DNA from: a virus
Taxonomy: Duplodnaviria > Caudoviricetes
Direction: 5' to 3' (one strand)
Length of the DNA stretch: 55,863 nt
Virus record (IMG/VR): IMGVR_UViG_3300017971_000058
Span: 1-55,863 of that record
Shown here: positions 24,153 through 39,058 of the stretch, one piece after another
Numbering within the stretch: position 1 is the stretch's first letter
Layout of the letters: each line of letters opens with the position of its first letter
The notes under the pieces: model-generated
Seen by the model: the letters and a program-made list of their open reading frames with translations, nothing else
Told to the model about the DNA's origin: nothing
The model's database searches: none
Position numbers and translations under genes: made by a program

Positions 24153-24673
24153 TGTGCCTTGTCCTTGTGCTCAGTCTTGTTCATGTAGCATGCCACGTCC
24201 GCGGCGTCGGCATCCTTGCCGATGCCCGCGCTGGCAGTCACCACTCCGTCCTTGGAGGTCCAAGCCCGGATGGCCTCCTTGATGCGTCGCGCTCCGGAGC
24301 GCGTCTCTGTCCAGATCGTGAACTCGTCGCCGCCAGTGCGCGCAGCGAGGATGTCCCGTGCGCGCATGTCGTGGTGACGAGTGTTCTCCATGAGGAAGTC
24401 GGCGAACTCGACGAGGATCTCATCGCCGTACGCATGGCCGCAACCAGGCCGGTCCTGTGCTGCCTTGAAGTCGTTGAGGTCAGCGACCACGTACCAGCCC
24501 CAGTCCCGTCCTCGAGTCCGACGTTCCAGTCCTCGCCGGTTCAGCAGTCCAGTCAGGTCGTTCGTGTCTGCCGCCATCATGTGCTGGTCGGCACGCTCCT
24601 CTGCCTCACGCAGCGCCTCCTTCATCGCCACGAACGTGGTCTTGGTTAGAGCGTCGAGTTCGTCGTCGTTCAC
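24149..24673 (-). CDS. GGDEF-domain diguanylate cyclase
   Basis: DLTGLLNRRG, ADLNDFKAAQD, GHAYGDEIL, ARTGGDEF, TASAGIG and ADVACY motifs, preceded by a short coiled coil. Confidence 0.9.
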   Translation of the reverse strand: MNDDELDALTKTTFVAMKEALREAEERADQHMMAADTNDLTGLLNRRGLERRTRGRDWGWYVVADLNDFKAAQDRPGCGHAYGDEILVEFADFLMENTRHHDMRARDILAARTGGDEFTIWTETRSGARRIKEAIRAWTSKDGVVTASAGIGKDADAADVACYMNKTEHKDKAQ

Positions 24674-24948
24674 GTCAGTTCCTCTGGCATGTAGTCAGGG
24701 ATGTGCAGCCCCGCAAAAGGGTCGTCGCCTTGCGCCCTGCTCGTGGCCTCGTCGCGCAGCCTGCGCATCCCCTCAAGTATGATCGTGAAGCTCTGGAGGA
24801 AGGACTTGTACATCGCCTCCGCTCCGGGAGGGTACTCGTCGTGCTTCTCCCTGTAGCGCATCATGCGCCTGGAGTAGAGTTGGTGCTCCTCCACCAGCTT
24901 GCGGTACTGCTCGATCAGGACTCGAGCCCGCTCTTCGATGCTGCTCAT
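24670..24948 (-). CDS. Hypothetical helical protein
   Basis: MSSIEERARV...; overlap coupling. Confidence 0.6.
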   Translation of the reverse strand: MSSIEERARVLIEQYRKLVEEHQLYSRRMMRYREKHDEYPPGAEAMYKSFLQSFTIILEGMRRLRDEATSRAQGDDPFAGLHIPDYMPEELT

Positions 24949-25328
24949 TGTAGTCCGTCCCAGATGGCGCGCACGCGGAAGGTGTCGATGCGGAACTCCT
25001 CGGCCACGGCCCACGCAGGCTTGTGGCCCTCGGCCAGCACGATCTCGTCACGCTCGTACCTGGAGAGCACGCGGTCGCGCTCTCCAGGTACGTGCCCAGG
25101 CTCCCACTCCTCATCCCCATACGTCCAGCGCATGGGTTCGTCGATGGTGTAGGTCTCGCCGTTGAGATCGTACACGATGTCCTCACCAGATCGACGGCCC
25201 TCGTGGACGTATGGGTGGGCCTTCCCATTGGTGGTTGTCCAGGACCGGACACGGCCAGCCGTGCTCACCTCGTAGCCCTCCAGCTCAGGGCTCGGGGCTG
25301 CCGTCCAGGCTTCTTCTTGGAGGTTCAT
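24945..25328 (-). CDS. NUMOD4-motif protein with C-terminal HTH-like region, no HNH motif
   Basis: W...LEGYEVSTAGRVRS NUMOD4 motif; C-terminal AWAVAEEFRIDTFRVRAIW. Confidence 0.6.
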   Translation of the reverse strand: MNLQEEAWTAAPSPELEGYEVSTAGRVRSWTTTNGKAHPYVHEGRRSGEDIVYDLNGETYTIDEPMRWTYGDEEWEPGHVPGERDRVLSRYERDEIVLAEGHKPAWAVAEEFRIDTFRVRAIWDGLQ

Positions 25329-25335
25329 GATACGT

Positions 25336-25363
25336 ACCATATCGCGTCCAGTCCTGGAGTCAA
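25336..25363 (-). promoter_or_regulatory. Sigma-70-type promoter, probably giving a leaderless mRNA
   Basis: TTGACT-N16-TATGGT, with ATG 25328 only 7 nt downstream of the -10 box. Confidence 0.5.
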
Positions 25364-25390
25364 GTATTTTCGGGTCTTTCTTCTGAGAGC

Positions 25391-25639
25391 CTACCAGTCC
25401 GGGCCATAAATGCCCACTAGGTCGGCGTAGCAGCGGGTCGAGCAGGCCCAGGGCCGCGGGTCGCCCTCCTTGGTCGGCTTCCCGCAGGACTGGCACGTCC
25501 CGATCGAGTCGGGCTCGTCGGCGATGGCCCGGTCCAGGGCCTCCGCGACCTTGGTGTTGATGGTCTGCTCCGGCTGGAGCTTGGAAGGGTCGAACGCTCC
25601 CAACCATCTCATGAAATTCGGTCTGTAGGAAGGACTCAT
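25391..25639 (-). CDS. Small Zn-finger protein
   Basis: CQSC...CSTRC motif. Confidence 0.55.
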   Translation of the reverse strand: MSPSYRPNFMRWLGAFDPSKLQPEQTINTKVAEALDRAIADEPDSIGTCQSCGKPTKEGDPRPWACSTRCYADLVGIYGPDW

Positions 25640-25749
25640 GATTGCTCCTGGTCGTGGTACTCCCGCACCGAGGCCCGCGCCAGAGCGACGCACTTGCCAA
25701 CGGCGAGGGTCAGGATCGCAAGGAATGTGATGCAGACTACTGCGTCCAT
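25636..25749 (-). CDS. Small membrane peptide
   Basis: MDAVVCITFLAILTLAVG...; GGAGG RBS. Confidence 0.5.
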   Translation of the reverse strand: MDAVVCITFLAILTLAVGKCVALARASVREYHDQEQS

Positions 25750-25931
25750 GATTCCTCCGGGGCTGCAATTCGTGCCCAGCAAGCAGGACTCATGTAAGGT
25801 TGGCCGTTCTTGTCTTTCCACTGTTGGTCTTGCGACGAGAAGCGGACCACTCCATAGCTCCACCCATCCATGCTCTTCCACGCTGCCAGCAGCAGCACGT
25901 TCACAGGAGGGTTTCCTTTCTGCCAGTACAT
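25737..25931 (-). CDS. Small Trp-rich protein (DUF551-like)
   Basis: MYWQKGNPP...VLL...CWARI; TGATG coupling. Confidence 0.5.
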   Translation of the reverse strand: MYWQKGNPPVNVLLLAAWKSMDGWSYGVVRFSSQDQQWKDKNGQPYMSPACWARIAAPEESWTQ

Positions 25932-26596
25932 CAGAAGCCCCAGGTCACGCCGACGAGTACGGAAAGGCCGTCGAGGTCGCCCTCGATCGTGTTGCCGTCG
26001 TCGTCGCTCACCTCGAAGTCCTCGGACGCGCGGTAACGGGCCTCGGCACCGAGCGCCCAGCGTTCGCTGATCTGGTAGCGTGCGCCAGTCTTGGCGTAGC
26101 CGCCGAGCTTGATGTCCTTGTCCGAGCCGCCGAGCGCCTCGACATCGACCAGCATGCAGTTGACGCCCGCGCCCAGGTAGGGGATGAGGCGTCCGTAGTT
26201 CCAGTCCTTGCGCAGGCCCAGGTACGCCTCGTAGGAGGTGAAGCTCACGTCGAACATGTGGCTCGGGCCGGTGGGCGTCATGGCGAAGGTCTGCGTGTCC
26301 TCCGTCCCGAAGAAGAAGCCCACCTCCGAGACGATCGGGAAGTTGGCGTTGCTGTCGAACTCGCCCGGCTCGTACACGTACTCGTACTGCACGCCGAAGG
26401 TGTCGGCGCGCACGTCGTCCTCGATCCTGTCGTCCTCGAACGCCTGCTGTCCGTAGTACACGGTCGCGGCTCGCCGCCCGGCGTTCTCCGGCGCCGGATC
26501 GACGGCGCGGATGGCTCGGTCCACGGACGCGCACGATGCGCAGATCCCGATGAGCACGGTCAAGATCACGGTCAGGGTCATGGTGTTGAGTCTCAT
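25931..26596 (-). CDS. Outer-membrane beta-barrel protein (OmpW/Ail-Lom-like), possibly lipidated
   Basis: Signal peptide with CASC, amphipathic strands (IPYLGAGV, LGAEARY) and terminal VGVTWGF. Confidence 0.8.
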   Translation of the reverse strand: MRLNTMTLTVILTVLIGICASCASVDRAIRAVDPAPENAGRRAATVYYGQQAFEDDRIEDDVRADTFGVQYEYVYEPGEFDSNANFPIVSEVGFFFGTEDTQTFAMTPTGPSHMFDVSFTSYEAYLGLRKDWNYGRLIPYLGAGVNCMLVDVEALGGSDKDIKLGGYAKTGARYQISERWALGAEARYRASEDFEVSDDDGNTIEGDLDGLSVLVGVTWGF

Positions 26597-26629
26597 GGTT
26601 CAGTCCTCGGTCAGAGTCTAGTGTTGCAG

Positions 26630-26974
26630 TCAGGTGATCCGCCCAAGCAGGACTCGAGTCCGCTTGCTAGGCTCCTTGGTCAGGAACCCGCGGCCTCGGC
26701 CGTCCTCGTACCTGGGCGGTGTGCGGAACTGGTCAGCGGTAGGGTCCACGACCTCGCCGCTGTCCGTGACCAGGAACCAGTGGACTCCCTCGTCCACGCG
26801 CACGGTCCTGGGGTGCAGCTCCTCCTCGGCCAGGAAGCGCACGGCCTCGCATGCCACGTAGCATAGGCCCCACGAGCTCGTCGCGCCCTGGGGGCGTCGC
26901 GCCGCCCAGTCGCGCCGGAGCAAGTCCGGGGTCAGGGCTGCGCGCACGCACCGTGTTGCTTCGCTGGTCTTCAT
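26630..26974 (-). CDS. Hypothetical protein (Cys/His/Asp, possibly papain/transglutaminase-like)
   Basis: GLCYVACEA...HWFL...VDPTADQF. Confidence 0.6.
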   Translation of the reverse strand: MKTSEATRCVRAALTPDLLRRDWAARRPQGATSSWGLCYVACEAVRFLAEEELHPRTVRVDEGVHWFLVTDSGEVVDPTADQFRTPPRYEDGRGRGFLTKEPSKRTRVLLGRIT

Positions 26975-26976
26975 GG

Positions 26977-27195
26977 TCAGTCCTTGCCGTAGTGGCTCTC
27001 GTGTTGCTCGCGCAGGAGCCTGCCGGGGACGCGCACCACCGTGGTCGCCTCGATGCGAATATCACTCTCCGTCCAAGCATCAGCCTCTTCGATCTCCTCT
27101 AGCGCCCATCGAACACAGTCCTGAGCGTCGTCGATGTCCCTGGCCCACAACTCCGTAGGTCCGTTGGGTGTGTGGATGATGAACTTCTGTTCCAT
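26977..27195 (-). CDS. Hypothetical protein
   Basis: MEQKFIIHT...; AAGGAG RBS. Confidence 0.6.
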   Translation of the reverse strand: MEQKFIIHTPNGPTELWARDIDDAQDCVRWALEEIEEADAWTESDIRIEATTVVRVPGRLLREQHESHYGKD

Positions 27196-27197
27196 GT

Positions 27198-27473
27198 TCA
27201 ATCTCCTTGGACATCGGAGCCCAGCTCGAACGCCTTGAGGTGGTCGGGCGCGGGCGCGCCGCCGGTCCCCTTCGGGAGCAGCAGGCCCCGGCGCTCTAGG
27301 TCGGCCATCAGTCTGTCGCCGCGCGTCCCTGTCATCAAGGTCCAGGCACCGCCGTCCTTGTCGGCTGCGCGGACGCGTGCCCGCATGGTCTGGTAGTGGC
27401 CGTGGCACAGGCCACGCGTGCGGCGGGTGTTCGGGCACCCGGGGTAGACACAGGTCGGAGGGGTGGTACTCAT
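27198..27473 (-). CDS. Zn-finger protein
   Basis: CVYPGC...RGLCHGHY motif. Confidence 0.6.
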   Translation of the reverse strand: MSTTPPTCVYPGCPNTRRTRGLCHGHYQTMRARVRAADKDGGAWTLMTGTRGDRLMADLERRGLLLPKGTGGAPAPDHLKAFELGSDVQGD

Positions 27474-27507
27474 GGCTAGTCCTTGGTGGTAGTCCTTGGT
27501 CTCGGAT

Positions 27508-28845
27508 TCAGGAGTTGGCGGCAGCAATCAGTTCGGCCATCCGGGGGCACACACTGTTGCCGATCTTGGCGATGCTGTCCTTCTTCGTGGGGAGCAGCGC
27601 GTAGTCCTCCGGGAAGCCCTGGGCAGCGGCCAGTTCGTGAGGCTCCAGCATGCGCAGGGTGATGTCCACGATCTGATAGTCGCGGCCGTGGACCTCGACC
27701 AGGCCGAGGCGCGCCTTGGCCGTGATCGTGTGGCACGGGTCGTTCAGGCTCTGCGCGTTGGCGAAGGTCCCGTCCCCGTAGTACTTGGTCAGGAAGGCCC
27801 GCACCTCCTCGACGCGCGGGTCCGTGCGCTCGCCCACGATCCCGGAGACGAGTGCGTGGTGGTCCTTGTTGGTGATGGTGGGCAGCGGCACGCTGACGGG
27901 CTTGCCGACCTCGCCGCCGAAATACTGAGCGACCCAGGGAATGACCAGGGCCTTGTCGTTGACGCCCGCGCACACGGTGCCGAGCGGCGCGTCCAGTCGC
28001 TGCCCGCGCAGCGTCATGCCCGCACCCGTGCGGCTCGACGCGTGGCCGGTGCGGATGATGAAGGCATCGTCCCCAGCCTCGAACACGTACCGCTTCATGC
28101 CCTTGGCGATGCGGAGCTGCGACGCCTCGGCCAGCGGCTTCTTGCGGCCGAAGATCGAGCGACCAGGCACGCTCCAGTCGATGATGGTGTGCGCGCCCAC
28201 GTAGGGCTTGAGTCCCGTGGACGAGTCCGCGGAGTGAGTCTGCTCCGGCCACCCGATCGGCTGGCCGTCGCAGCGCGCGACCAAGTACCACCGCCTGCGC
28301 GTGGTCGGCACGCCGAAGTCGCAGGCCGCCAGGACTCGAGTCTCCACCCGGTAGCCGTGCCCGCGCATGCTGCGCAGGAACCGCTGGTAGGTCTCGCCCT
28401 TGCGGGACTTGACCGGCTTCCCGTCCGCGCCGATCGGGCCCCAGTCCTCGAACTCAGGCACGTTCTCCATGAAGATCACCCGCGGGCGAACCTCCTTGAT
28501 CCACTTGAGCACGGTCCACGCCAGGCCGCGCACACGGCCGGACACGGGCGCGCCGCCCTTGGCCCTGGAGAAGTGGCGGCAGTCGGGCGAGGCCCAGAGC
28601 ACGTCCACGGGCATCCCCTCGGTCAGCTCCTGGGCCTTGCCTGCGATCGTCCACACATCCTCCAGGAGGTGCAGCGTCTCGGGGTGGTTGAGCGCGTGCA
28701 TCTCCAGCGCGCTCTCGTTGTGGTTCACAGCGATGTCAGGCGCGCGGCCGAGCGCGGCCTCCAGGCCAGTCGATGCACCGCCACCTCCTGCGAAGCTGTC
28801 GATGATGAGGGCGTCCTGTCCGAGAGTTGGTTGCATGGTCTGCAT
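27508..28845 (-). CDS. DNA cytosine-5 methyltransferase (orphan)
   Basis: FAGGGG, SPDC, ENVPEF, TRRR and IGNSVCP motifs. Confidence 0.93.
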   Translation of the reverse strand: MQTMQPTLGQDALIIDSFAGGGGASTGLEAALGRAPDIAVNHNESALEMHALNHPETLHLLEDVWTIAGKAQELTEGMPVDVLWASPDCRHFSRAKGGAPVSGRVRGLAWTVLKWIKEVRPRVIFMENVPEFEDWGPIGADGKPVKSRKGETYQRFLRSMRGHGYRVETRVLAACDFGVPTTRRRWYLVARCDGQPIGWPEQTHSADSSTGLKPYVGAHTIIDWSVPGRSIFGRKKPLAEASQLRIAKGMKRYVFEAGDDAFIIRTGHASSRTGAGMTLRGQRLDAPLGTVCAGVNDKALVIPWVAQYFGGEVGKPVSVPLPTITNKDHHALVSGIVGERTDPRVEEVRAFLTKYYGDGTFANAQSLNDPCHTITAKARLGLVEVHGRDYQIVDITLRMLEPHELAAAQGFPEDYALLPTKKDSIAKIGNSVCPRMAELIAAANS

Positions 28846-28857
28846 GGTGTCGTGTCC

Positions 28858-29085
28858 TCAGTTGGAGTTGGCGTGGTTCTCGATCTCGTTGATTAGCTCG
28901 GCGATGTCGTCGCAGTTCATGGTCGTCCGCTCGTCCTGCATCAAGGCGACGGTTGCTGCCTTGGCACGGATGAGAGCTTGCCGCACGTCCTCCCCTACGT
29001 GCTCCCACAACCCGCGCCAGTCCCTGCGCAGCTCACGGGCGAAGGTCTTGTGCTGTTGCGTGCTCCAGCGGTTCTTGCGCTTCAT
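28858..29085 (-). CDS. Hypothetical early protein
   Basis: ORF with GAGGA RBS. Confidence 0.65.
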   Translation of the reverse strand: MKRKNRWSTQQHKTFARELRRDWRGLWEHVGEDVRQALIRAKAATVALMQDERTTMNCDDIAELINEIENHANSN

Positions 29086-29103
29086 GGGAGTCCTCGTGTG
29101 TAG

Positions 29104-29418
29104 TTAGGCGGGCCACACGGCCGCGACGGCCGCGTTGATGTACTCGATGAAGGTGTCCAGCTCGGTCTCGGCGTCGAGTCGTGCGCACTCTTCCATGCCG
29201 TTCTCGCTGTAGTAGCCAAGCACCTCGGGCAGGATGCCCAGGTCTTCGGCCTGGCGGCAGTCCGGCTCCAGGTAGATGATCGCGAGCGCGTCCGGTGCCC
29301 ATTGGCCTCGGTCCTCGGCCGGGTCCTTGATGTAGGTCTCGACCTCCACGTCCGAGACGTGGAACAGTTGTTTGGCGGCTTTGCGGTAAGCGGCGACGGT
29401 CAGCTTGGTCTTGCTCAT
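29104..29418 (-). CDS. Hypothetical early protein
   Basis: MSKTKLTVAAY...; GAGGA RBS. Confidence 0.65.
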   Translation of the reverse strand: MSKTKLTVAAYRKAAKQLFHVSDVEVETYIKDPAEDRGQWAPDALAIIYLEPDCRQAEDLGILPEVLGYYSENGMEECARLDAETELDTFIEYINAAVAAVWPA

Positions 29419-29483
29419 GGTGTGGGTCCTCGTGTGGTGATGGTGCGTCCGTGTGGTGAGTCCTTGTGTGCAGTCCTGCGGCG

Positions 29484-29822
29484 TTAGACCAGATCGCGGC
29501 TCATGGCCCAGTCGTCCAGCGCTTCCTCGATCGCATCGTACAGCGCATCCTCGGCCTCTCCGGCCTGGGTGTCGAAGCCGATCGACCCGGCGCCCCATGA
29601 GCCGTGGTGGTCCGTGTCGAAGGACGCGCAGCCGGTCAGTAGCTCCAGCGTGGAGCCGTCCAGGGTGCGCACCCGGAAGGGCAGGTAGCGCGCTTCCTCC
29701 GGGCCGTTCGGTGCCGGGTCCGCGCCGTACGGCGCACCCGGGAAGGCCAGCGATTGAGCGTCCAGGAGATCGGGCAGAAGTTCCTGTGCGGCGATCCGGT
29801 TGCGGGTGTTGCGGATGGTCAT
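29484..29822 (-). CDS. Hypothetical acidic early protein
   Basis: MTIRNTRNR...; GAGGA RBS. Confidence 0.65.
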   Translation of the reverse strand: MTIRNTRNRIAAQELLPDLLDAQSLAFPGAPYGADPAPNGPEEARYLPFRVRTLDGSTLELLTGCASFDTDHHGSWGAGSIGFDTQAGEAEDALYDAIEEALDDWAMSRDLV

Positions 29823-29869
29823 GGTGGGTGTCCTCGTGTGGTGGTGGTCGTGGTGTGTCCGTGTGGTGG

Positions 29870-30334
29870 TCAGTTGGACGCGGCCTGCTCGAACATGCCG
29901 CGCGCTTCGTGATCGTGCTCGTAGCAGTCGCACGCCTCGGAGTAGTACAGCGGATCGAACGCCGACCCGATCTGGCGATCCTGCCAGTTGCCGTCGTACG
30001 AGTCCGGCCCCGTGATGGGCTCCACACCACTGGCGCGGATCACGGCGTTGGGGGCGATGGAGAACAGAGCCTCGAAGAAGTGGCCGTGAGCGTGCCAGCA
30101 TGCGCAACCGCCGATCCGGCGACGCTCGCCATCCTTGTTCCGGGAGAAGCCCCGACGGCCCCCGCGCTTCCGACAGTCGCGCACGCTCAGTCCGAACGAG
30201 ACCGAGCTGCGCGAGGTGCGGCCGACGTGTGCGGGTTCGGCCTTGAACTCCAGGTTCCCGGCGTAGTGGTCGTCATGATTGCAGAGTGCGAGCGCTTCGT
30301 GGAGCTGCTCGGGGGTGACGTTCTTGGCTTGCAT
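29870..30334 (-). CDS. Hypothetical early protein (Cys/His-containing)
   Basis: ACWHAHGHFF and SEACDC motifs; AAGGA RBS. Confidence 0.7.
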   Translation of the reverse strand: MQAKNVTPEQLHEALALCNHDDHYAGNLEFKAEPAHVGRTSRSSVSFGLSVRDCRKRGGRRGFSRNKDGERRRIGGCACWHAHGHFFEALFSIAPNAVIRASGVEPITGPDSYDGNWQDRQIGSAFDPLYYSEACDCYEHDHEARGMFEQAASN

Positions 30335-30377
30335 GGTTCGTGTCCTTGTGTGGTAGGTTCGTGCCGTGGTGGGCAGC

Positions 30378-30470
30378 TCAGGCGGGCAGGTGCTGCGCGA
30401 CGCTGACCAGGATGAAGACGGCGACGGCGATGAAGGGCGAAAGGGCGATCAGTTTGCCGGTGGCGCTCAT
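30378..30470 (-). CDS. 30-aa membrane peptide, first gene of the early operon
   Basis: MSATGKLIALSPFIAVAVFILVSVAQHLPA; CAGGA RBS. Confidence 0.5.
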   Translation of the reverse strand: MSATGKLIALSPFIAVAVFILVSVAQHLPA

Positions 30471-30514
30471 GGTAGATGTCCTGTGTGTGGCGTTCATGGT
30501 CTCGAATCCGCGGA

Positions 30515-30543
30515 AGTCTACCCGCCCCTCCTATGGAAGGCAA
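30515..30543 (-). promoter_or_regulatory. Leftward early sigma-70-type promoter
   Basis: TTGCCT-N17-TAGACT. Confidence 0.6.
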
Positions 30544-30738
30544 ACCCAGCGCGCTCCTGAGTGGATTGTTTCGACCTAAACCCCTGTCCCTGCCCGGGTT
30601 ACGTGCAAAACAATATCCCAGATTGTCCTGGCCAGGCGCCAGGCGCCCCCATCGCCCCCACCCGGGACAGGGGCGCCCCCACGATAGGGGCGCCGAAATC
30701 GGCCCTGGCGGCCCTGTGCGGGCCGATTTTCGCCGATC

Positions 30739-30877
30739 GCCCCCATCGCCCCCATGTTTGCATCCCATACGGGGTCGGGTGTGGTGTGCTTGTGTCTGTG
30801 TGCGGGTGTGTGGGTGTGTATGTGGAGGACAGCACAGGACCCCCCGTATGGGATGCAAGGATGGGGGCGATGGGGGC
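30739..30877. repeat. Long inverted repeat (~38-40 bp arms) around a GT-rich spacer
   Basis: 30739-30776 versus 30838-30877: two mismatches and one 2-nt indel. Confidence 0.9.
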
Positions 30878-31205
30878 ACTTTCGTATAATCGGCCTTCCT
30901 GGTACTGTGCGGGCCGTTTTCAGGCGCCCCCACTTGGGGGCGGGTGGTGCTCAAGTGCCCCCATATGGGGGCGATTAGGGGGCTAGAACGGTCATAAGTC
31001 CTTATAGGGTATGGTGTTAGGATCACTAGGGGCCCTGGGATCGGGCCGCCAGATCCGGGTACGGATCTGGATTGTTTTTCACACAATCCCCAGATCGCTC
31101 TGTGTTGCCCTGTGCGGCACGATCGCCCCTGGCCGACCCCTGAGTCGGATTCTCGGAGATCGTCGATTTTGAACCTTTTTTCCGCCCATTATTTCCTACC
31201 CGTCC

Positions 31206-31495
31206 TGGCACGGGTTTTGCTACGGAAAACGCCTGGCACGGCCCTTGCTACGGCCTTCAGGTGAGCGGCCTGCCTGGCACGCCCTTTGCTAGGGCCGTCC
31301 CTGGCACGGCCCTTGCTAGGGGGTTCTGTGGCACGCCCTTTGCTAGGCCCTGCCTGGCACGGGCCTTGCTAGGGCCTACCTGGCACACCCCTTGCTAGGG
31401 GGCACTTGGCACGGGCCTTGCTACTCGAGTCTTGGCACGCTTCTTGCTAGTGCATGCCCTGGCCTGGGGCCAAGCACTTGGCACGGGCCTTGCTT
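31206..31495 (+). repeat. Array of ten sigma-54 (-24/-12) consensus elements
   Basis: TGGCAC-N5-TTGCT starting at 31206, 31234, 31275, 31302, 31329, 31355, 31381, 31407, 31433 and 31479; GG-N10-GC spacing exact in all ten. Confidence 0.92.
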
Positions 31496-31672
31496 GCGCG
31501 CGACCGCCTCCACGACCGGCCGCGGGTCGCGAGCTCCCTCCCCGTGCTCGTAACGCGCGGGCAGAAAAATTGCGGTCTGGAAAATCGGAGCGGTCGAAAA
31601 ATCGAGGTTTTGTGCTAAAGAACGCGCGGGCGCCTGAACTTGAGGGCCTCCAAGAAAAATACGGGATTTCAG

Positions 31673-31701
31673 TTGACTTCACCCCCGTTCCGTGTTACGG
31701 T
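31673..31701 (+). promoter_or_regulatory. Rightward sigma-70-type promoter
   Basis: TTGACT-N17-TACGGT with extended TG and upstream A-tracts. Confidence 0.65.
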
Positions 31702-31739
31702 TGCGCGTAGGGTGCTAGATCCAGCACCACAGCCCGTCC

Positions 31740-32801
31740 ATGCCCAGTCCGCACCAACAGGAGACCGAATCTCCCTTGCTCGACGCGTTCCTGCGCGGTG
31801 CGGAGCTACGCCGATTGCAGGGCGCGGAGCTGCGCGCGGCCCTGCACGAGGTGTGGACAGAAGGCGAACGGCCGCCCGCGGACCCCTTCGACCCGGAGAC
31901 CAAGCCGCTGCGCATCATGGTGATGTGGCGCCTCTGCCGGACGACCGCGATCGTGAAGGGCCTGTGCGCCGAGGACGAGACGCTGGACGCCGCGACCGAA
32001 CTCGAGCCGAACCCCTGGGTGGAACCCTTCCTTCCCATACTATCCGCAGCGGCTGGGTCGGCCCTCCGGCGCCAGCGCGCCGCGGCGCTGCTCCGCTACC
32101 ACGCCGAGGACCGGGGCCTGCCCCTCCTACCGCCCCGCGCCGAGCCGCGCGAGCTCGCCCGATGGTGCAACGCCGCAAGCATCGTGGCCGCGGACCTGGG
32201 GATCGAGAGGACCGCTGAGGGCCTCGCGGGACTCCAGGGGCTGCTCGACCCGCACCAGTGCGCCCGATGCGACGTGTCCGCGGCCGAGGTGCTGGCGTTC
32301 GAGGAGATGCTGCTCGCGGAGACGCTCGACCTGCTCCTGGACGCTGGCGAGCGCGCGACAGTCAAGCACTTCAAGGGTGAGTACGGCTTCGCGCACAAGG
32401 AGGCGAACGGCCTGCTGCGCGTCGTGAAGACGCAGGCGCTGGAGCGGTCGGCGGCGAGCATCGAGGAGAAGCGCGCCCTCCAGGAGATGCGACTCGAGGA
32501 CTTCATCGGTCGGTCCAAGGAGTCCCTGGACATGGACGGCGAGATGAAGGGCATCAAGGAGCTGGCGAAGATCCAGGGCCTGACACGCACCGAGCCGGAG
32601 AACCAGGCCGAGGAGTTCTTCGCAGTCGTGAAGCGCGTGGCCGAGCGACAGGATAAGGAGCAACTCGACGAGAAGACGCTCAAGCTCTTGGACGGGCGGC
32701 GAGCGGAAGAAGTCGAGGCAGTCGTGCTCGAACCGGAGCCCGACGACCCGGACGACGCCGAAGCGTTGGCCGAATTCGACAACGAGAACCAACACCGATA
32801 G
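31740..32801 (+). CDS. Hypothetical protein, possibly terminase small subunit-like
   Basis: First gene of the terminase-containing operon; helical C-terminus (IKELAKIQGL) and acidic tail. Function inferred from position only. Confidence 0.45.
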   Translation: MPSPHQQETESPLLDAFLRGAELRRLQGAELRAALHEVWTEGERPPADPFDPETKPLRIMVMWRLCRTTAIVKGLCAEDETLDAATELEPNPWVEPFLPILSAAAGSALRRQRAAALLRYHAEDRGLPLLPPRAEPRELARWCNAASIVAADLGIERTAEGLAGLQGLLDPHQCARCDVSAAEVLAFEEMLLAETLDLLLDAGERATVKHFKGEYGFAHKEANGLLRVVKTQALERSAASIEEKRALQEMRLEDFIGRSKESLDMDGEMKGIKELAKIQGLTRTEPENQAEEFFAVVKRVAERQDKEQLDEKTLKLLDGRRAEEVEAVVLEPEPDDPDDAEALAEFDNENQHR

Positions 32802-32809
32802 GTGCTACC

Positions 32810-33121
32810 ATGAGCAACCAATTCCAACCCCTCTTCGACGCCATGGAGTCCGGCGTCAGGAGCATTCTCGACCAACTCATCGACGGCACTGTCGAAGACC
32901 TCGACGGCCCGATCAGGGACATCGCCTCGCGCCTGACCCTCGCGGCCCGACGCAACCGCATGGACCTCGTGGAAGCGTGCCAGGATCAGCTCAAGGTCAT
33001 CGTGATCGAGAAGGAGCTGGTGCTCAAGAGCGGCACCTCCGGCTTCTTCGACACCGTGATCTCCGTCGGCATCAACGCCCTCATCAACGGCGCCATCGGG
33101 GCGCTCAACTCGCAACGCTAG
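32810..33121 (+). CDS. Hypothetical protein
   Basis: 103-aa ORF with phage-typical codon bias. Confidence 0.7.
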   Translation: MSNQFQPLFDAMESGVRSILDQLIDGTVEDLDGPIRDIASRLTLAARRNRMDLVEACQDQLKVIVIEKELVLKSGTSGFFDTVISVGINALINGAIGALNSQR

Positions 33122-33133
33122 AAAGGGACCAAC

Positions 33134-35350
33134 ATGACACGCCCGCAGAAGCCTGAATTCATCGGGAACCCGAACAACGACCTGGACCTCGCTGCATACG
33201 AAGAGGCTGTACGCCGATGGGAGGAGGCGTGCAAGGTGTATGATGCCAACCTGCGCAAGGCCGCGGGCGAGCCGACGATCGACGACGCGCTCAAGCAGAT
33301 GACCGACGAGAAGGCCGGGCCGCCCGGCCCTCCCGGTCTCGATGGTGTGAACGGTGCACCCGGCCCGGAAGGTCCCGAGGGACCGGAGGGACCGGCCGGT
33401 GCTGACGGCGCCGACGGCGAAGACGGAGCCGAGTGGTTCGTCGGATCCGGCGCGCCCAGCGCAGGGCTCGGCGTGGACGGGGACTTCTACCTGAACAGCG
33501 ACAACGGCGACGTGTACAAGAAGGCTGGCGGCTCCTGGGGCAGCCCCGTCGCCAACATCAAGGGAGCCGACGGTGCAGACGGTGCTGATGGCGCCGACGG
33601 TGCGGACGGCTCGGTCTGGTACGAGGGCACGGGCGCTCCCGGCGCGGGCCTCGGCGTGGACGGCGACTTCTACCTGGACGACGCGACCGGCGACGTGTAC
33701 CAGAAGTCGGGCGGTTCCTGGGGCGTCGTCGCGAACATCACCGGCCCGACAGGCGCAACGGGCGCGGCCGGTGCCGATGGCGCGGACTGGTACAGCGACC
33801 CGACCGATCCCAGTACGCTCTACAACGACGGCGACCACCACATGAACACGGCCTCGGGGGAAATCTTCGAGCAAGTCAGTGGTGCGTGGGTCTCGCAGGG
33901 CACCCTCGACATGGAGGACGCAAAGCAAGACCGCGAGAACGGTATCGTGGACATCACCGAGTGCGAACTGGTGTTCGTGGACGGCACGCGCCAGGTCCAG
34001 ATCCAACCCTTCACCACCTTCTTCGAGTATTACCACGACGGTACCTACTACAAGGAGACCGGCACCCTGACTGTGGTGATTCCGGATGTCGAGGGCCTGC
34101 ACTGGGTCTACATCGACGGTGCTACGCTTTCTAGCACCCAGGTGTTCGACGAGTCTCTCATCATCGACGAAGTGCTCGTTGCTATCGCCTACTGGGATGC
34201 GACGAACAAGACCTTCATCCGCGAGGGAGACAAGCGTCACGGAGCCATCATGGCTTCTGCCACGCACCGTGCCGCGCATTTCACCACAGGTCCGGCTTAC
34301 AGTCTCGGCTTTGGACTTGGCAACATGGACGTGGACGGCAGCGGGAACAACGCATCTGCTGCGAGGTTCTCGGTCGCGGACGGGGACTACTACGACGCCG
34401 ACCTGAAGCACGCCATCAAGGACAACGCGCCCCAGGAGCTTTCGACCATCGCCGAGATTCCGTTGTTCCACCGCAGCGGGGCGAGCGGCGACTGGCGCAA
34501 GGTCACGGCCACCACGTATCCGATCACGACCACGGGCACCGGGCGCGCGGCGTGGAACGAGTTTACGGGCGGGTCGTGGGGCCTCTCCGAGGTCGCCAGC
34601 GGTGACTTCGTGCTCGTCCACTACTTCGCCACCAACGACAAGGTGGAGCCCATCATCGGGCTCGTGGGCCTGGACACGTACAGCGATATCCGCATGGCGC
34701 GAGAAGGCGCCGCGGCCGAACTGGACGCGTTGCGCGACGGAGTGTATCAGGGCCTGATCCCGGACAGTATCCCGATCGCCACAGTGATCTGGGAGACCAA
34801 CTCTTCGTACACCAACGCAGTCAAGTCGCGCGTGCGCTCCACGCACCGGGACGAGGACTACGTGGACTGGCGAGACACGCTGGGTGACGAGAATGTCCCT
34901 GGGCCGGACCTCAACGCCAACAAGGCGATGCAGTACCGGAACACGGACAACTCGACCAACATGAACGTGACGGGCGGGGTGCCCGTGCCGCTGTTCGCTA
35001 CAGCGGAACTCACGCACCCGGACTTCACTCTCACGAGCGCGACGCAGATCACTTGCAACTTCGACGGCATAGTCGAGGTGAGTGGTTGTATCACCATCGT
35101 CACAGGAGTCACCACCATCCTCAACCTGGCTGCTGGTTACTTGCTGAACGGCACGCCTCTTGCGGGCTACGGCGGTTCTCAGCCGATGCAGGCTCCTGCC
35201 CTTGCCTTCGGCTCCATCACGGTGCCGACCCGTCGCATCGCCGTATCCAACGGCGACACGATCGGCATTTTCGCAATCCGTCTCGGCGGTGCCGGGTCGG
35301 TTCTTCAGATCAACAACCTCTCCTGGGGCCTCGTCAAGAGGATCTCCTGA
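33134..35350 (+). CDS. Collagen-like fibre protein
   Basis: Gly-X-Y runs (GPEGPE, GADGAD), duplicated GLGVDGDFYL...GDVY module and a beta-rich BclA/C1q-like C-terminus. Confidence 0.8.
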   Translation: MTRPQKPEFIGNPNNDLDLAAYEEAVRRWEEACKVYDANLRKAAGEPTIDDALKQMTDEKAGPPGPPGLDGVNGAPGPEGPEGPEGPAGADGADGEDGAEWFVGSGAPSAGLGVDGDFYLNSDNGDVYKKAGGSWGSPVANIKGADGADGADGADGADGSVWYEGTGAPGAGLGVDGDFYLDDATGDVYQKSGGSWGVVANITGPTGATGAAGADGADWYSDPTDPSTLYNDGDHHMNTASGEIFEQVSGAWVSQGTLDMEDAKQDRENGIVDITECELVFVDGTRQVQIQPFTTFFEYYHDGTYYKETGTLTVVIPDVEGLHWVYIDGATLSSTQVFDESLIIDEVLVAIAYWDATNKTFIREGDKRHGAIMASATHRAAHFTTGPAYSLGFGLGNMDVDGSGNNASAARFSVADGDYYDADLKHAIKDNAPQELSTIAEIPLFHRSGASGDWRKVTATTYPITTTGTGRAAWNEFTGGSWGLSEVASGDFVLVHYFATNDKVEPIIGLVGLDTYSDIRMAREGAAAELDALRDGVYQGLIPDSIPIATVIWETNSSYTNAVKSRVRSTHRDEDYVDWRDTLGDENVPGPDLNANKAMQYRNTDNSTNMNVTGGVPVPLFATAELTHPDFTLTSATQITCNFDGIVEVSGCITIVTGVTTILNLAAGYLLNGTPLAGYGGSQPMQAPALAFGSITVPTRRIAVSNGDTIGIFAIRLGGAGSVLQINNLSWGLVKRIS

Positions 35351-35351
35351 C

Positions 35352-35498
35352 ATGAAGCGCTACAAGAAGCTGCTCATCGCGCTCGCGGCCATCGCGAGCA
35401 TCTACATCGTGAAGGCCACCGGCCTTGACCAGGGCCTCATTGACGACGTGCTCGATGCGGCGATCGAGGCAGTCACCGAAGCCCCGGCCGAGGAGTAG
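35352..35498 (+). CDS. Small membrane protein (possible holin-like)
   Basis: MKRYKKLLIALAAIASIYIV...; single TM helix. Confidence 0.5.
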   Translation: MKRYKKLLIALAAIASIYIVKATGLDQGLIDDVLDAAIEAVTEAPAEE

Positions 35499-35501
35499 AT
35501 C

Positions 35502-35789
35502 ATGGACTTCAACTGGATTCGCCATGACCTTCTCAGAGGCGCGGGCCATAGTACGTCGGCAGCAGGGAAGCGTTCTGTGCATACCGTAGTGGTCACTTCT
35601 ACGATGCGGCAGGGCGAACTGCTCAATCGGCTACACGGTGTGAAGACAGCATCTCTACAGCAAGGAGCTAACGGCTTCTTCCGAGGCCGCCCGGTTCCTG
35701 TAGTGTTCGATACCGAAGCCGTGCAGACGATCGTTGCGTCGTACGAGGCCGAGCTGGACAAGCTACGCAAGCAACTTGGAGTGACCTAG
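35502..35789 (+). CDS. Hypothetical protein with atypical codon usage
   Basis: 95-aa ORF filling the gap; GAGGAG upstream. Confidence 0.55.
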   Translation: MDFNWIRHDLLRGAGHSTSAAGKRSVHTVVVTSTMRQGELLNRLHGVKTASLQQGANGFFRGRPVPVVFDTEAVQTIVASYEAELDKLRKQLGVT

Positions 35790-35790
35790 C

Positions 35791-36369
35791 ATGGGAGTCG
35801 GACTCGAGACCCTGTTCCACCTCATCTACGAGCTCGTTCACTGGATCGTCTCGTGGATCGTCCCTCAGTATGGCGTCGTCGAGGCGCAGGAGATGGGCGT
35901 GAAGGTGACAGGGCCTCGGGTCAAGGAACTCAAGCCGGGCGGCTACTGGCAGCACCGCCAGCGCACGACGGTCTACAAGGCCAACGTGAAGCGAGTGGTG
36001 CGCGAGCCCGCTGACGTGATCGCGACCACGAAGGACGGCCACTCTGTCCGTGTCGGGATCTCGTTGGCGTTCATCATCACCAACATCAAGACGTGGCTCA
36101 TCGACAACGAGGACGCGGAACAGGGCCTCCTCGTGGACGTGCAACGAGTCGTGCTCAAGTTCGTCAGGACGCACACGTTTGACGAGATCCAGGAGCACGA
36201 CGAGGACGACCTCACCAAACTCGCGCAGAAGGAACTCGGTCGCTACTTCGGCGTGCAAGTGAAACAGCTCGGCATCACGACGTTCGTCGAGACCGAGTGC
36301 CGCGACCTCAACCACTCCGGCAGCCTCGACGCGAGCGCCGGTATTTCCGAGGAAGAAGAAGACGAATGA
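35791..36369 (+). CDS. SPFH/Band 7 domain protein
   Basis: N-terminal hydrophobic stretch, ELKPGGYW, TTKDGHSV and FGVQVKQLGI motifs. Confidence 0.75.
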   Translation: MGVGLETLFHLIYELVHWIVSWIVPQYGVVEAQEMGVKVTGPRVKELKPGGYWQHRQRTTVYKANVKRVVREPADVIATTKDGHSVRVGISLAFIITNIKTWLIDNEDAEQGLLVDVQRVVLKFVRTHTFDEIQEHDEDDLTKLAQKELGRYFGVQVKQLGITTFVETECRDLNHSGSLDASAGISEEEEDE

Positions 36370-36767
36370 AGCATCTGCTGATTGCTCTGAGCCTCGCGCT
36401 CGCTTCGTGCGCGGGAGTGCAGCCCGGCAACGTGCCGATCGCGGAGGGCTCGGTTGCCCGAACCATCGAGCGCGTGCTGGACCGCACCGAAGCCTACGCC
36501 GCGGAGGACAGCCTCGAGTTCGACAGGGAAGTCGCGGTCTCGATCGAGCACGCCCGCTCGGTGCTGCTGGTGCCGGAGGCGAGCGGGGCCTCGTTGCGGA
36601 GCTACCTGGCCCCGCTGATGAGCCTGCACGACCTGCTGGTCTCGGAGCGCGGCGCCGACGGCCGCCTCGAACAGCTCGAAGTGGACGTATATCTGGAGGA
36701 CACCGCGCGCCTCCGCTCTCTGTTCGACGCCGTGAACATCTACGCAGCGCCAGCCTTGGCGCCCTAG
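36366..36767 (+). CDS. Lipoprotein
   Basis: MKHLLIALSLALAS-C lipobox. Confidence 0.7.
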   Translation: MKHLLIALSLALASCAGVQPGNVPIAEGSVARTIERVLDRTEAYAAEDSLEFDREVAVSIEHARSVLLVPEASGASLRSYLAPLMSLHDLLVSERGADGRLEQLEVDVYLEDTARLRSLFDAVNIYAAPALAP

Positions 36768-36771
36768 TCCT

Positions 36772-37092
36772 ATGATGCAGCTCCCGGAAGACTACGTGCC
36801 CGAATGGGCGAAGTACATCATCGCGACCGTTCTCGGCGCAGGCGGCCTGCACTGGTTCCGCGTCTGGTTGGAGTCTCGACGGCTCGCGAAAAAGGACTTC
36901 CGGGAGCTGCTGCTGGACCGAATCCGTGAATTGGAGACGGTGGTGGCGAACATGCAGAAGCGGATGGGCAACCTGCGGGTGGAGATGGCCCATCTGGAGA
37001 CGGAGAACATCCAGCTCAGGCGCCAGCTTGGGCTCGAAGAGGAGAATCACCGTGTTGACGAACAGGAGGAAGGAGGAAGCGTCGATGGATAG
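36772..37092 (+). CDS. TM plus coiled-coil protein (holin/spanin-like)
   Basis: YIIATVLGAGGLHWF followed by heptads. Confidence 0.55.
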   Translation: MMQLPEDYVPEWAKYIIATVLGAGGLHWFRVWLESRRLAKKDFRELLLDRIRELETVVANMQKRMGNLRVEMAHLETENIQLRRQLGLEEENHRVDEQEEGGSVDG

Positions 37093-37597
37093 CCTGCGCA
37101 GCCCGATGGACTTGTGCGAACGCCTCGGTTTGAGGCCGATGGCGGCGCAACTCTCCATCATGCGCCGCTTCTACGAGGGTGAGAACCCCCTCCAAGCCCC
37201 CGAAGTTCCCAACGAGAAGACAGTCAACGCCGTCGCGGTGTGCGCACTGTGGCGGCTGCTGTCCATCCCAGGCTCCCGATGTGTGGTCATCGGGTCGAGT
37301 CGCGACCTGGAGGGCCGCTTCATGGGTATCCTCCACGAGATCACGACCAAGGTGGACCCGATTCTCGCCTCTGTGTGCCGTTGGACGAACAAGCGAACGC
37401 TCAAGGTCGGCGACGCGGCTGGGCACGAGCTGCGATTCGTGTCGAATGTGCCTGAATGGCTCCGGTGCATGGAAGAAGGGCCGACCACGTACGTGGTTTT
37501 GGGTGCTCGAAGCTCTGATACTAATTTTGTAGACGCTTCGAGGATCATCGAGAGCTACGACGGACTCAGAGGAGCCCGCCACATCATCGTTTGGTAG
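37085..37597 (+). CDS. Degenerate paralogue of the terminase ATPase domain
   Basis: Collinear similarity to the adjacent TerL N-domain, with Walker A and B lost. Confidence 0.6.
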   Translation: MDSLRSPMDLCERLGLRPMAAQLSIMRRFYEGENPLQAPEVPNEKTVNAVAVCALWRLLSIPGSRCVVIGSSRDLEGRFMGILHEITTKVDPILASVCRWTNKRTLKVGDAAGHELRFVSNVPEWLRCMEEGPTTYVVLGARSSDTNFVDASRIIESYDGLRGARHIIVW

Positions 37598-37600
37598 CAG

Positions 37601-39058
37601 ATGGGGCGCTTCTCGCGACAATTCGAGCCTCTCTACGAGCGTTGGCGCTCCGATATCCGCGTCTTTGCTCGGGAGGCGATGAATTTCGACTACACCTGGC
37701 AGCAGGAGGAGCTGTTCGACATCGTACAGCTCGAATCCTGGCTCCCAGTCGAGAAGCGGCTCAAGCGAATCGCTGTCCGCTCCGGAAAAGGGCCTGGAAA
37801 GACGGCCGCGTCGGCGATTGTGGCGCTGTGGCGCTGCCTGCGCTACCCCGACGCGCTCTGCATCGTCACTTCGCCGTCGATGCGCCAGTGCAAACAGTGG
37901 ATCGACGAGTGCTCCCGCCTTTTGAAGGACGCGCACCCCGTCTTGCAGAAGATGGTGAAGTGCTACGGCACCAAAGTCGAGATCAACGGCTCGAAGCTGT
38001 GGGGAATCCGCACCGCCACGGCCACTAGGCCGGAGAACCTCCAGGGGATCCACGAGAAGCGCCTCACGTTCATCGCTGACGAAGCCTCCGGCGTCGCGGC
38101 GAAGATCATGCAGACGATCAAGGACACGCTCTCCAACCCGGACGCGCTGTTCCTGGCGATCGGCAACCCGAACACGAGCTCGTGCGACTTCTACTCCTAC
38201 TTCACGGCGAACGCTGAACAGTGGCACCGCCTGTGCTGGAACGCTGAGGACACGGCTCGGGACTACCCCCACCTCCTCTCTCCCACCCGGAACAAGCAGA
38301 TCGAGTGGGAATTCGGCCGCGACAGCGATCAGTACCGCATCGCAGTCCTCGGCGAGTTCCCTCACGAGGACCCGAACAACGTCATGGGCCTGCGGGACCT
38401 GACGATCTGCACCAAGACCAGTCTGCTGGGCTGCGCGGGCATCTTCGACATGCTGCGCGTGAACAAGGCCATCGGAATCGACTACGCGCGCTTCGGTGGG
38501 GACGAGTCGGTCATCGCGCGCCGGGCAGGGCTCGCCATCGTGGACTTCGAGACGTTCGTGAAGACCGAGCCGATCCAAGTCACCGATCGGGCCTTCGCGA
38601 TGCAGCGGGATGCCAACTGGCGCGATGCGGACTGCTGGTACATCCCGGATGCGGGCGGGATGGGCCAAGGCGTCGTCTACTCGTTCCACGAGGGCGGCAA
38701 GAACGTGCTGGAGTTCCACACGCAGGCTCGCGCGTACGACAGCGCGATGTTCGCCGACCTCTACTCTGAGGCGTGGTGGATGTTCCGCAACCTGGTGCGC
38801 GAGCACATCGTGCGCATCCCCAACGACGCGCGGCTGCTCAAGCAGCTCTCGACGCGTCAGTACTACACCGACCGCAAGGGGAAGCTCAAGGTCGAATCGA
38901 AGGACGAGTGGCGGAAGCGCATGGAGATCAGCGAGTCTCCCGACCGCGCCGACGCGATCGTCATGGCCTTCTACCCGCACCTCGGTGAGGAAGGCGCCCT
39001 GATCCAAGCCTCTCGCCACCACCACATCGTCGGGACTCGAGCCCAAAGGAGCCGCTAG
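37601..39058 (+). CDS. terL: Terminase large subunit
   Basis: SGKGPGKT, FIADEASG, IGNP, GIDYARFGGDES and SPDRADA motifs. Confidence 0.95.
   Translation: MGRFSRQFEPLYERWRSDIRVFAREAMNFDYTWQQEELFDIVQLESWLPVEKRLKRIAVRSGKGPGKTAASAIVALWRCLRYPDALCIVTSPSMRQCKQWIDECSRLLKDAHPVLQKMVKCYGTKVEINGSKLWGIRTATATRPENLQGIHEKRLTFIADEASGVAAKIMQTIKDTLSNPDALFLAIGNPNTSSCDFYSYFTANAEQWHRLCWNAEDTARDYPHLLSPTRNKQIEWEFGRDSDQYRIAVLGEFPHEDPNNVMGLRDLTICTKTSLLGCAGIFDMLRVNKAIGIDYARFGGDESVIARRAGLAIVDFETFVKTEPIQVTDRAFAMQRDANWRDADCWYIPDAGGMGQGVVYSFHEGGKNVLEFHTQARAYDSAMFADLYSEAWWMFRNLVREHIVRIPNDARLLKQLSTRQYYTDRKGKLKVESKDEWRKRMEISESPDRADAIVMAFYPHLGEEGALIQASRHHHIVGTRAQRSR

Follow-up and report, generated by a model that had tools for sequence, protein, structure and literature searches.

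A tandem array of sigma-54-type sites in a metagenomic tailed phage and its possible role as a sink for host sigma-54 polymerase

The virus record IMGVR_UViG_3300017971_000058 (Duplodnaviria; Caudoviricetes) was analysed over its whole length of 55,863 bp, referred to below as the window. It is a complete record with terminal repeats and a G + C content of about 64%, and derives from a metagenomic virus of sediment/seawater runs. Genes for replication and early functions, including DNA polymerase, helicase, exonucleases, primase and a C5 methyltransferase, run leftward (5594-30334), and a second set runs rightward (31740-39058), with P0001, a 103-aa gene, a collagen-repeat tail fibre gene and the large terminase gene (TerL); the remaining genes encode tail and head proteins. 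The two operons diverge from a 1.2-kb intergenic region, which extends from a small leftward open reading frame (ORF; 30378-30497) to the rightward ATG at 31740. Within this region, at 31206-31495, lies a tandem array of ten sites that resemble the promoter elements recognised by sigma-54 (RpoN), and this array is the subject of the present analysis.

The sigma-54-type sites and the constraint on their motif

A pattern scan of the whole window found ten co-oriented exact matches to TGGCAC-N5-TTGC on the forward strand, all of them continuing as TTGCT and each of them perfect (Table 1). Elsewhere in the window only five matches with one mismatch were found. Exact and one-mismatch matches together numbered 15, against 3.34 expected from shuffled sequences, and none of 100 shuffles gave 15 or more. 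The start-to-start spacings, read 5′ to 3′, were 28, 41, 27, 27, 26, 26, 26, 26 and 46 bp. TGGCACG is present in nine copies, with copy 7 (TGGCACA) as the exception, and TTGCTA is likewise present in nine, with copy 10 (TTGCTT) as the exception; TTGCT is followed by A or T in all ten, and the GG-N10-GC spacing is exact in every copy. The extended consensus of the sigma-54 -24/-12 element is YTGGCACGrNNNTTGCW. By motif and geometry, the ten sites are sigma-54 -24/-12 consensus elements.

Tandem Repeats Finder (TRF) reported the array as a tandem repeat with periods of 26 and 52 and about 76% identity. With the ten copies set in a fixed register, the 13 columns of the sigma-54 consensus were compared with 13 other columns. 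Variation was seen in 2/13 motif columns and in 13/13 non-motif columns (Fisher p = 2e-5), and the pairwise mismatch was 18/585 (0.03) in the former and 314/585 (0.54) in the latter. Since divergence is confined to the non-motif columns, the array is unlike a decaying minisatellite, and the motif appears to be under selection.

A coding tandem repeat was ruled out by the period of 26-28 nt, which is not divisible by 3, and by the absence of a codon-position GC signal from the array region. When the array was folded as RNA, the z-score was -2.63 and the ensemble diffuse, which was unpersuasive as a sign of an RNA element. BLAST searches of the array and of the region 30000-34000 against 50,697 GenBank phage records gave no match. 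A Logan contig of 24,036 nt, with a depth of about 18, covers the array without variants; the identical contig was found in two DNA runs, both of which are probably the source of the record, so it does not count as independent support. No RNA run containing the sequence was found.

Table 1. Coordinates of the array, of other elements in the intergenic region and of neighbouring genes in the window
Feature	Position	Strand	Remarks
Start of leftward early operon	29870..30497	-	39-aa ORF 30378-30497; 154-aa gene 29870-30334
Separate repeat system left of array	30630..30980		about nine CGCCCCCAT motifs, perfect palindrome GCCCCCATATGGGGGC, long inverted repeat
Terminator-like hairpin with T-run	31049..31080	+	upstream of array
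Sigma-54 site array	31206..31495	+	TGGCACG-N4-TTGCTA x10, non-coding
Site 1	31206..31222	+	TGGCACGGGTTTTGCTA
Site 2	31234..31250	+	TGGCACGGCCCTTGCTA; resembles single inverted site of relative L124/L120
Site 3	31275..31291	+	
Site 4	31302..31318	+	
Site 5	31329..31345	+	
Site 6	31355..31371	+	
Site 7	31381..31397	+	sole TGGCACA copy
Site 8	31407..31423	+	
Site 9	31433..31449	+	
Site 10	31479..31495	+	TTGCTT; 261 nt 5′ of ATG at 31740; ancestral position
Conserved segment just 3′ of site 10	31500..31562	+	hairpin-forming CGCCTCC...CGCAC-type element, CCCTCCCC tract, AACGCGCGGGC; from alignment
Four GAAAAATCGG-like repeats	31564..31670	+	last is GAAAAATACGGGATTTC, abutting -35 hexamer; read from sequences, kept in relatives
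Sigma-70 extended -10 promoter of rightward operon	31673..31701	+	TTGACT, 17 nt, TGtTACGGT; kept in aligned relatives
Palindrome between promoter and ATG	31711..31728	+	GGTGCT-N6-AGCACC; largely kept in aligned relatives
P0001, first rightward gene	31740..32801	+	353 aa, acidic, no assigned function
Collagen-repeat tail fibre gene	33134..35350	+	
Large terminase gene (TerL)	37601..39058	+	

Arrays in relatives, unrelated phages and bacterial genomes

Twenty-one viral loci were found to carry a terminase 66-87% identical to that of the window, and these loci are syntenic with it. Close relatives (TerL 82-87% identical) hold between zero and two sigma-54 sites, one of them inverted, and when the whole records of ten relatives were scanned, seven proved to be without an exact site and three to have a single one. 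Upstream of the P0001 homologues, at 17 loci (8 viral and 9 metagenomic, some from the same contigs), the maximum was two sites. In L135 the ATG of the P0001 homologue is preceded at 270 nt by a single perfect site; in L126, L127 and L139 one site lies at 295 nt and a second, 10/11 site falls in the spacer of the sigma-70 promoter; L125 has the promoter-overlapping site alone; and in L124/L120 the distal single site is on the opposite strand. The homologous single sites keep the motif, and site 10 of the window aligns with the distal ones. As the relatives have only zero to two sites and site 10 aligns with theirs, we conclude from this comparison that the array is a recent, lineage-specific tandem expansion of a single ancestral site.

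The 10/11 site within the 17-nt sigma-70 spacer has the form TGGCACG-N5-TGCTAGGGT (L127 2956 / L108 3763; L125 2946 / L106 5011) and has been lost in the window; sigma-54 binding at such a spacer-embedded site would compete with sigma-70 polymerase. The 3′ end of the window's tail fibre gene contains a lone CGGCACGCCTCTTGC site (35149-35163, +) that keeps GG-N10-GC, beside a stretch with 76-83% identity in relatives (35350-35490).

The related genome G051 encodes a DNA polymerase, helicase, primase and TerL that share 72-85% identity with their counterparts in the window, and only one exact site (plus a 10/11 proximal one) is present; G053 and G054 have none. Conservation of these replication and packaging proteins in G051 without the array excludes the array as their recognition site. 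Six tested genes (25931-30334) of the block 24670-30334 had no counterpart in G051, G053 or G054, which are 92-100% complete, and a factor co-acquired with the array may come from this window-specific block.

Beyond the relatives, 2.9 million viral contigs were searched for two adjacent TGGCAC-N5-TTGCT-type sites, with a spacing of 22-32 bp allowed. The pattern was found at 51 loci (L001-L051) with G + C contents of 32-66%. Two of these, L005 and L039, are coding repeats with a period of 15 or 24, and the other 49 are of non-coding type; 29 of the 49 hold 3-14 co-oriented sites and represent about 23 lineages after grouping of near-duplicates. The bases within and between the sites vary from contig to contig. 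Among 103 gaps in arrays of at least three sites, 62 are 25-28 bp, none is 22-24 bp and seven are 18 bp. Searches with control motifs returned no viral locus for the reversed motif and one locus each for half-site gaps of N6 and N4, against 51 with N5, so it is the sigma-54 geometry itself that recurs. At positions left unfixed by the search, the 144 unique sites of the viral arrays have G (0.84) or A (0.15) after TGGCAC, Y (0.77) before TGGCAC and W (0.82) after TTGCT, in agreement with the sigma-54 consensus. Five complete array-bearing genomes have one cluster each and zero to three stray sites.

All of the viral arrays are intergenic. Self-trained gene calling with manual grouping of near-duplicates gave 24 deduplicated lineages including the window, and the gene nearest downstream is co-oriented with the array in 13, opposite in six, both in one and cut off by the contig edge in four. 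A cruder tiling gene call gave 19 same, 10 opposite and six edge cases, and the orientation figures thus depend on the gene caller and are not decisive. At ten other loci the genes downstream are for the most part small and without assigned function; an integrase gene lies beside one doublet, and the survey was uninformative. L014 (314-455), L019 (7739-7880), L041 (7700-7925) and G006 (20656-20884) have sites of both strands interleaved, facing each other at a distance of only a few bases, as in TTGCT-N6-GCAA, and L007 also interleaves sites of both strands. Runs at 18-bp spacing, which places 16-bp motifs 2 bases apart, occur in L031 (14 sites), L044 (13 sites) and L038. In at least seven lineages (L003, L004 group, L014 group, L031 group, L035, L036 and L041) the array precedes the terminase/portal module by 0.2-2.2 kb; its sites face the module in some of these lineages and the other way in others.

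The same two-site pattern was then counted in 596 Gb of bacterial and archaeal genomes. Only 45 bacterial loci were obtained: 16 coding repeats (period 15, 16 or 24), mostly in Actinomycetota, Variovorax and Paenibacillus, and 29 doublets, a weak third site being present in one of the latter. The doublets are almost all from sigma-54-bearing taxa, with six in Bradyrhizobium, three in Ensifer and others in Desulfobacterota, Acidobacteriota, Planctomycetota and further groups. As bacteria yielded doublets or coding repeats only, the arrays with at least three sites are, within these collections, peculiar to viruses. The exact rhizobial doublets have their sites 23-26 bp apart (Bradyrhizobium L070, L089, L092, L093 and L095; Ensifer L067, L074 and L102), and the Ensifer doublet is identical in all three loci.

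These results bear on an earlier prediction made from the letters of the window alone. It had described ten co-oriented copies, nine of them TGGCACG, with exact GG-N10-GC spacing, and every detail of this that can be checked is correct. Its view that the motif rather than the repeat unit is conserved agrees with the column comparison and with the 144 viral sites, and its assignment of the sites to sigma-54 is borne out by the N4, N6 and reversed controls and by the unconstrained positions, which follow the consensus. Similar arrays, which it proposed to look for in related contigs, recur in unrelated phages, and close relatives have no more than two sites. Its refuting condition of homologous arrays that fail to keep GG-N10-GC does not apply in that form, since the relatives have no arrays and their homologous single sites retain the motif.

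Possible roles of the array

We favour the view that the array is selected for the binding of sigma-54 polymerase and is not the required promoter of the rightward operon. The conserved sigma-70 promoter of that operon suggests that it does not depend on the array as a promoter. The inverted homologous site in one relative, together with the arrays that interleave both strands, indicates that the orientation of the sites is not essential. Given the operon's own conserved promoter and the close relatives without an array, these selected, presumably high-affinity sites most likely form an accessory sink for host sigma-54 polymerase. Such a titration (decoy) role is the leading interpretation of the array and was the one originally proposed; we hold it tentatively, rating it somewhat short of probable.

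According to this model, one sigma-54 site about 260-295 bp upstream of the first rightward gene would have been expanded in tandem as a 26/52-bp unit. Sigma-54 holoenzyme, or sigma-54 alone, would dock on the -24/-12 elements as closed complexes, and these would stay silent without an enhancer-binding ATPase, for which no phage-encoded candidate was found. The sink would divert sigma-54 polymerase from host promoters, and its capacity would rise as the phage genome replicates. The spacing of 25-28 bp (2.5 turns) would let closed complexes pack on alternate faces of the helix. Binding of sigma-54, silence of the bound polymerase and altered host gene expression are all steps that we infer.

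Titration and decoy systems are known from the datA cluster of DnaA boxes, from plasmid iterons and from 6S RNA, a sponge for sigma-70 holoenzyme, and phages encode protein anti-sigma factors such as T4 AsiA and T7 Gp2. The proposed sink resembles these in removing a host regulator through many high-affinity sites or a mimic and in redirecting host transcription. It differs from them in its proposed target, sigma-54, and in its agent, which would be phage DNA instead of protein or RNA. Compared with a datA-type system, the window has a cluster of perfect sites next to an operon with its own promoter, and the orientation of the sites is not conserved. Sigma-54 binds as a transcriptionally inactive holoenzyme, and alone it binds more weakly in vitro (PMC4591121). 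Many of the natural Salmonella sites in the site table of PMC3844500 deviate from TTGC, unlike the ten sites of the array. Orphan and intragenic sigma-54 sites of Escherichia coli and Salmonella, for which PMC4591121 and PMC3844500 propose non-promoter roles such as repression and interference, are single, scattered, chromosomal and often sub-consensus, whereas the array is a dense set of perfect sites on a replicating phage genome.

A phage-encoded partner for the array was sought in the same sequences. The window genome has no match to the sigma-54 activator domain (PF00158) or to the sigma-54 DNA-binding domain (PF04552), and no enhancer-like site was recognised upstream of the array. Of the 49 array-bearing records, three gave weak AAA+-type matches to the activator family, none of them convincing. 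When the ORFs of the window were compared with L001-L051, the TerL of L041 was the sole match; none of the protein families of six complete array-bearing genomes occurred in over three of them, and a MazZ-like domain and TerL were all that the window had in common with the others. As a common phage binder was not found, host sigma-54, with its universally conserved specificity, is the economical candidate. It is possible, although we place less trust in this than in a sink in the window, that the arrays amount to a DNA-encoded 'anti-sigma-54' in many unrelated phages, which would soak up host sigma-54 polymerase as the phage replicates.

A Gram-negative host is indicated by an outer-membrane beta-barrel protein with a signal-like N-terminus (25931-26596, -; PF13505, 37.8 bits), encoded in the window-specific block 24670-30334, and by the relatives of the major tail protein, found in 207 phage records that are mostly from phages of Proteobacteria, including Chi-like siphoviruses. 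This fits the presence of rpoN without proving it. The window contains no tRNA genes and its DNA polymerase gave one distant match, neither of which served to identify a host.

Several points weigh against a sink. All ten sites face the rightward operon, and 13 co-oriented lineages against six opposite ones (one-sided binomial about 0.08) fit promoters better than a pure sink. The start predicted from site 10 falls at the beginning of the conserved segment that follows it, as that of a real promoter would. Judged by its footprint, holoenzyme could hardly occupy all sites at once at spacings of 26 bp or, in some other phages, 18 bp, so the capacity of a sink would be lower than its number of sites. 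We know of no demonstration that a phage benefits from depletion of sigma-54. Relatives thrive with zero or one site, which would suit a weak or neutral role just as well, and rpoN is only presumed to be present in the host.

The serious rival is a conditional multi-start promoter. The array would then be an auxiliary sigma-54 promoter firing toward the rightward late operon, given an active host enhancer-binding protein or an unrecognised phage activator, and the tandem copies would raise the capture of scarce sigma-54 holoenzyme and provide a host-state-dependent boost over the sigma-70 promoter. The points of orientation just mentioned speak for it (13 of 19 decidable lineages have the nearest downstream gene on the same strand), as do the intergenic position of all arrays, the fixed distance of the ancestral site from the ATG in four lineages (261-295 nt), with the predicted start abutting the conserved segment, and the existence of tandem doublets in sigma-54-bearing bacteria. 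We nevertheless consider it rather unlikely. No convincing activator was found in the window or in the 49 array-bearing records, the operon is already served by a conserved sigma-70 promoter, the exact site is missing from seven of ten relatives' records and is inverted in one relative, and the untranslated distance to the ATG would be at least 246 nt. Face-to-face interleaving and 18-bp spacing would cause mutual occlusion, the arrays are antisense to both neighbouring genes in six lineages, and no bacterial genome in the 596 Gb exceeds a doublet.

Bacterial sigma-54 promoters share with the array the identical motif (TGGCACG-N4-TTGCW, with GG and GC ten bases apart) and the intergenic placement, and in Bradyrhizobium, Ensifer, Desulfobacterota and others they share the tandem arrangement as doublets. 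They differ in that the array has ten full-consensus copies at 26-28 bp, no recognised activator gene or enhancer, a sigma-70 promoter of its own downstream, and is dispensable in relatives, three or more sites being found only in viral contigs. The T7 early promoters A1, A2 and A3 are sigma-70 promoters about 100 bp apart and independent of an activator. Like them, the array is a cluster of co-oriented sites for host polymerase at the head of a phage transcription unit; unlike them, its sites are of the sigma-54 type, 26 bp apart and unable to fire alone.

Bound sigma-54 polymerase might instead serve a purpose in cis, for instance by insulating the divergent operons from each other, by forming a roadblock between them or by assisting replication or packaging, much as IHF does at lambda cos. 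The setting would suit such a use, since the divergent operons are separated by 1.2 kb of regulatory DNA in which the array has a distinct repeat system and a long inverted repeat as neighbours, and the cumulative GC skew of the window turns near 24-30 kb; the lack of a conserved orientation and the arrays upstream of terminase modules in at least seven other lineages, in either orientation, would suit it as well. However, relatives with 72-85% identical replication and packaging proteins hold zero or one exact site, and the terminase gene of the window is 6.1 kb from the array. The region upstream of the terminase is moreover among the few long intergenic regions of any phage, so that placement there may carry no signal. 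To our knowledge such an element has no precedent, and we regard this explanation as improbable.

Slightly more improbable again is that the repeats are iterons for a phage-encoded DNA-binding protein, acting in origin function, partition, packaging or repression, which merely resemble the sigma-54 consensus. Iteron origins such as lambda ori and plasmid oriV are built from direct repeats some 17-20 bp long within a control region near replication genes, and the array consists of direct repeats of comparable size in an intergenic control region beside replication genes, as is typical of such sites. The block 24670-30334 contains small unknown proteins, one of them with a CxxC...CHGH motif, and a binder could possibly have been gained from it together with the array. 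Against this, unrelated phages with 32-66% GC show the identical geometry but no candidate binder in common with the window, a change of one base in the half-site gap reduces the loci from 51 to one in either direction, and the unconstrained positions follow the sigma-54 consensus. The spacing of 26 bp corresponds to 2.5 and not to an integral number of helical turns, and an AT-rich unwinding element is absent, the array having about 64% GC. The repeats are also not conserved along with the initiator and terminase, with one exact site in G051 and none in G053 and G054, and the CGCCCCCAT repeat system, which is kept in relatives, is a better candidate for the sites of a phage protein.

That slippage amplified a unit containing a sigma-54-like site by chance, leaving a functionless minisatellite, is hardly credible: the array is indeed unique to the window among its relatives and is a 26/52-nt tandem repeat by TRF, but neutral decay would not yield a mismatch of 0.54 outside the motif and 0.03 within it, nor independent arrays of the same motif in about 23 viral lineages against zero to one control matches.

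Full-text literature searches surfaced nothing on arrays of sigma-54 sites, sigma-54 decoys or tandem sigma-54 promoters in phages. The motif is known, and it is the arrangement and its restriction to viruses that appear undescribed. The original prediction had also stated that it knew of no described phage element of this kind, that no enhancer-binding ATPase was recognised in the genome and that the downstream operon has a sigma-70-type promoter; the literature searches, the absence of a PF00158 match and the conservation of the promoter are in accord with it on all three.

In many bacteria, motility, pili, the use of nitrogen and a number of stress and defence genes are under sigma-54 control. 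If the array is a sink, sigma-54 regulons would be expected to shut down, among them those for flagella, pili, nitrogen control, some defence genes and the stress responses of the envelope and of RNA repair. It would then be the first example from nature of a DNA sponge directed at a sigma factor, and would stand in for an anti-sigma factor, none of which is known for sigma-54 according to the review PMC3861889. Sinks of this kind would represent a new anti-host weapon made of DNA and a ready tool for titrating sigma-54. If the arrays are promoters instead, phages would be employing sigma-54 through tandem promoters of a format foreign to bacteria, and the activator would have yet to be identified. 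Either way, that dozens of unrelated phages carry arrays of perfect sites, and 596 Gb of bacterial genomes none, points to an undescribed strategy of host takeover or gene control.

Neighbouring elements and other genes of the window

The sigma-70 promoter of the rightward operon was not called by a simple sigma-70 consensus scanner run on 30300-31800, which found no promoter there. It was accepted because it is conserved in aligned relatives, where the -35 hexamer TTGACT, the 17-nt spacer, the TG at -15/-14 and a -10 element of the form TA(C/G/T)GGT are all kept. The conserved segment between the array and the promoter region is also kept in relatives that have no sigma-54 site. In the stretch that follows it (31564-31670), and in the homologous stretches of L106, L108 and L120, GAAAAATC(C/G)GG motifs are repeated, the last of which is the palindrome-like GAAATCCGGGATTTC in relatives; the repeats of this stretch are probably regulator sites for the sigma-70 promoter and the rightward operon. 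An Atlas search with P0001 gave weak leads to small-terminase-like clusters, all below 0.9, which were not used.

To the left of the array, the inverted repeat of the separate repeat system (30738-30878) has arms of about 36 nt and a GT-rich loop. This repeat system is partly kept in relatives and is a candidate operator or origin region, not part of the sigma-54 array. Rfam searches of 30300-31800 gave sub-threshold microRNA-type matches on the inverted repeat and a sub-threshold Guanidine-II match, which were rejected. The start of the leftward operon coincides with the right end of the block 24670-30334, and the small protein with the CxxC...CHGH motif is encoded within this block at 27198-27527. 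In L108, the intergenic stretch 3270-3320 has five telomere-like CCCTAAC repeats, which are absent from the window.

Two further genes on the leftward strand were noted. A stand-alone GGDEF diguanylate cyclase of 174 aa with an intact motif is encoded at 24149-24673 (Pfam 41.9 bits, cut-off 23.8), which suggests phage manipulation of host c-di-GMP. A link between this gene and the array was rejected, as GGDEF occurs in the window and in five of ten relatives' records but in none of the 49 unrelated array-bearing records. At 7700-9013 lies a gene with a MazZ-like dATP/dGTP diphosphohydrolase domain (PF18909); a PurZ homologue to accompany it was not found in the window genome, and similar MazZ-like domains are present in the array-bearing complete genomes G006 and G039.

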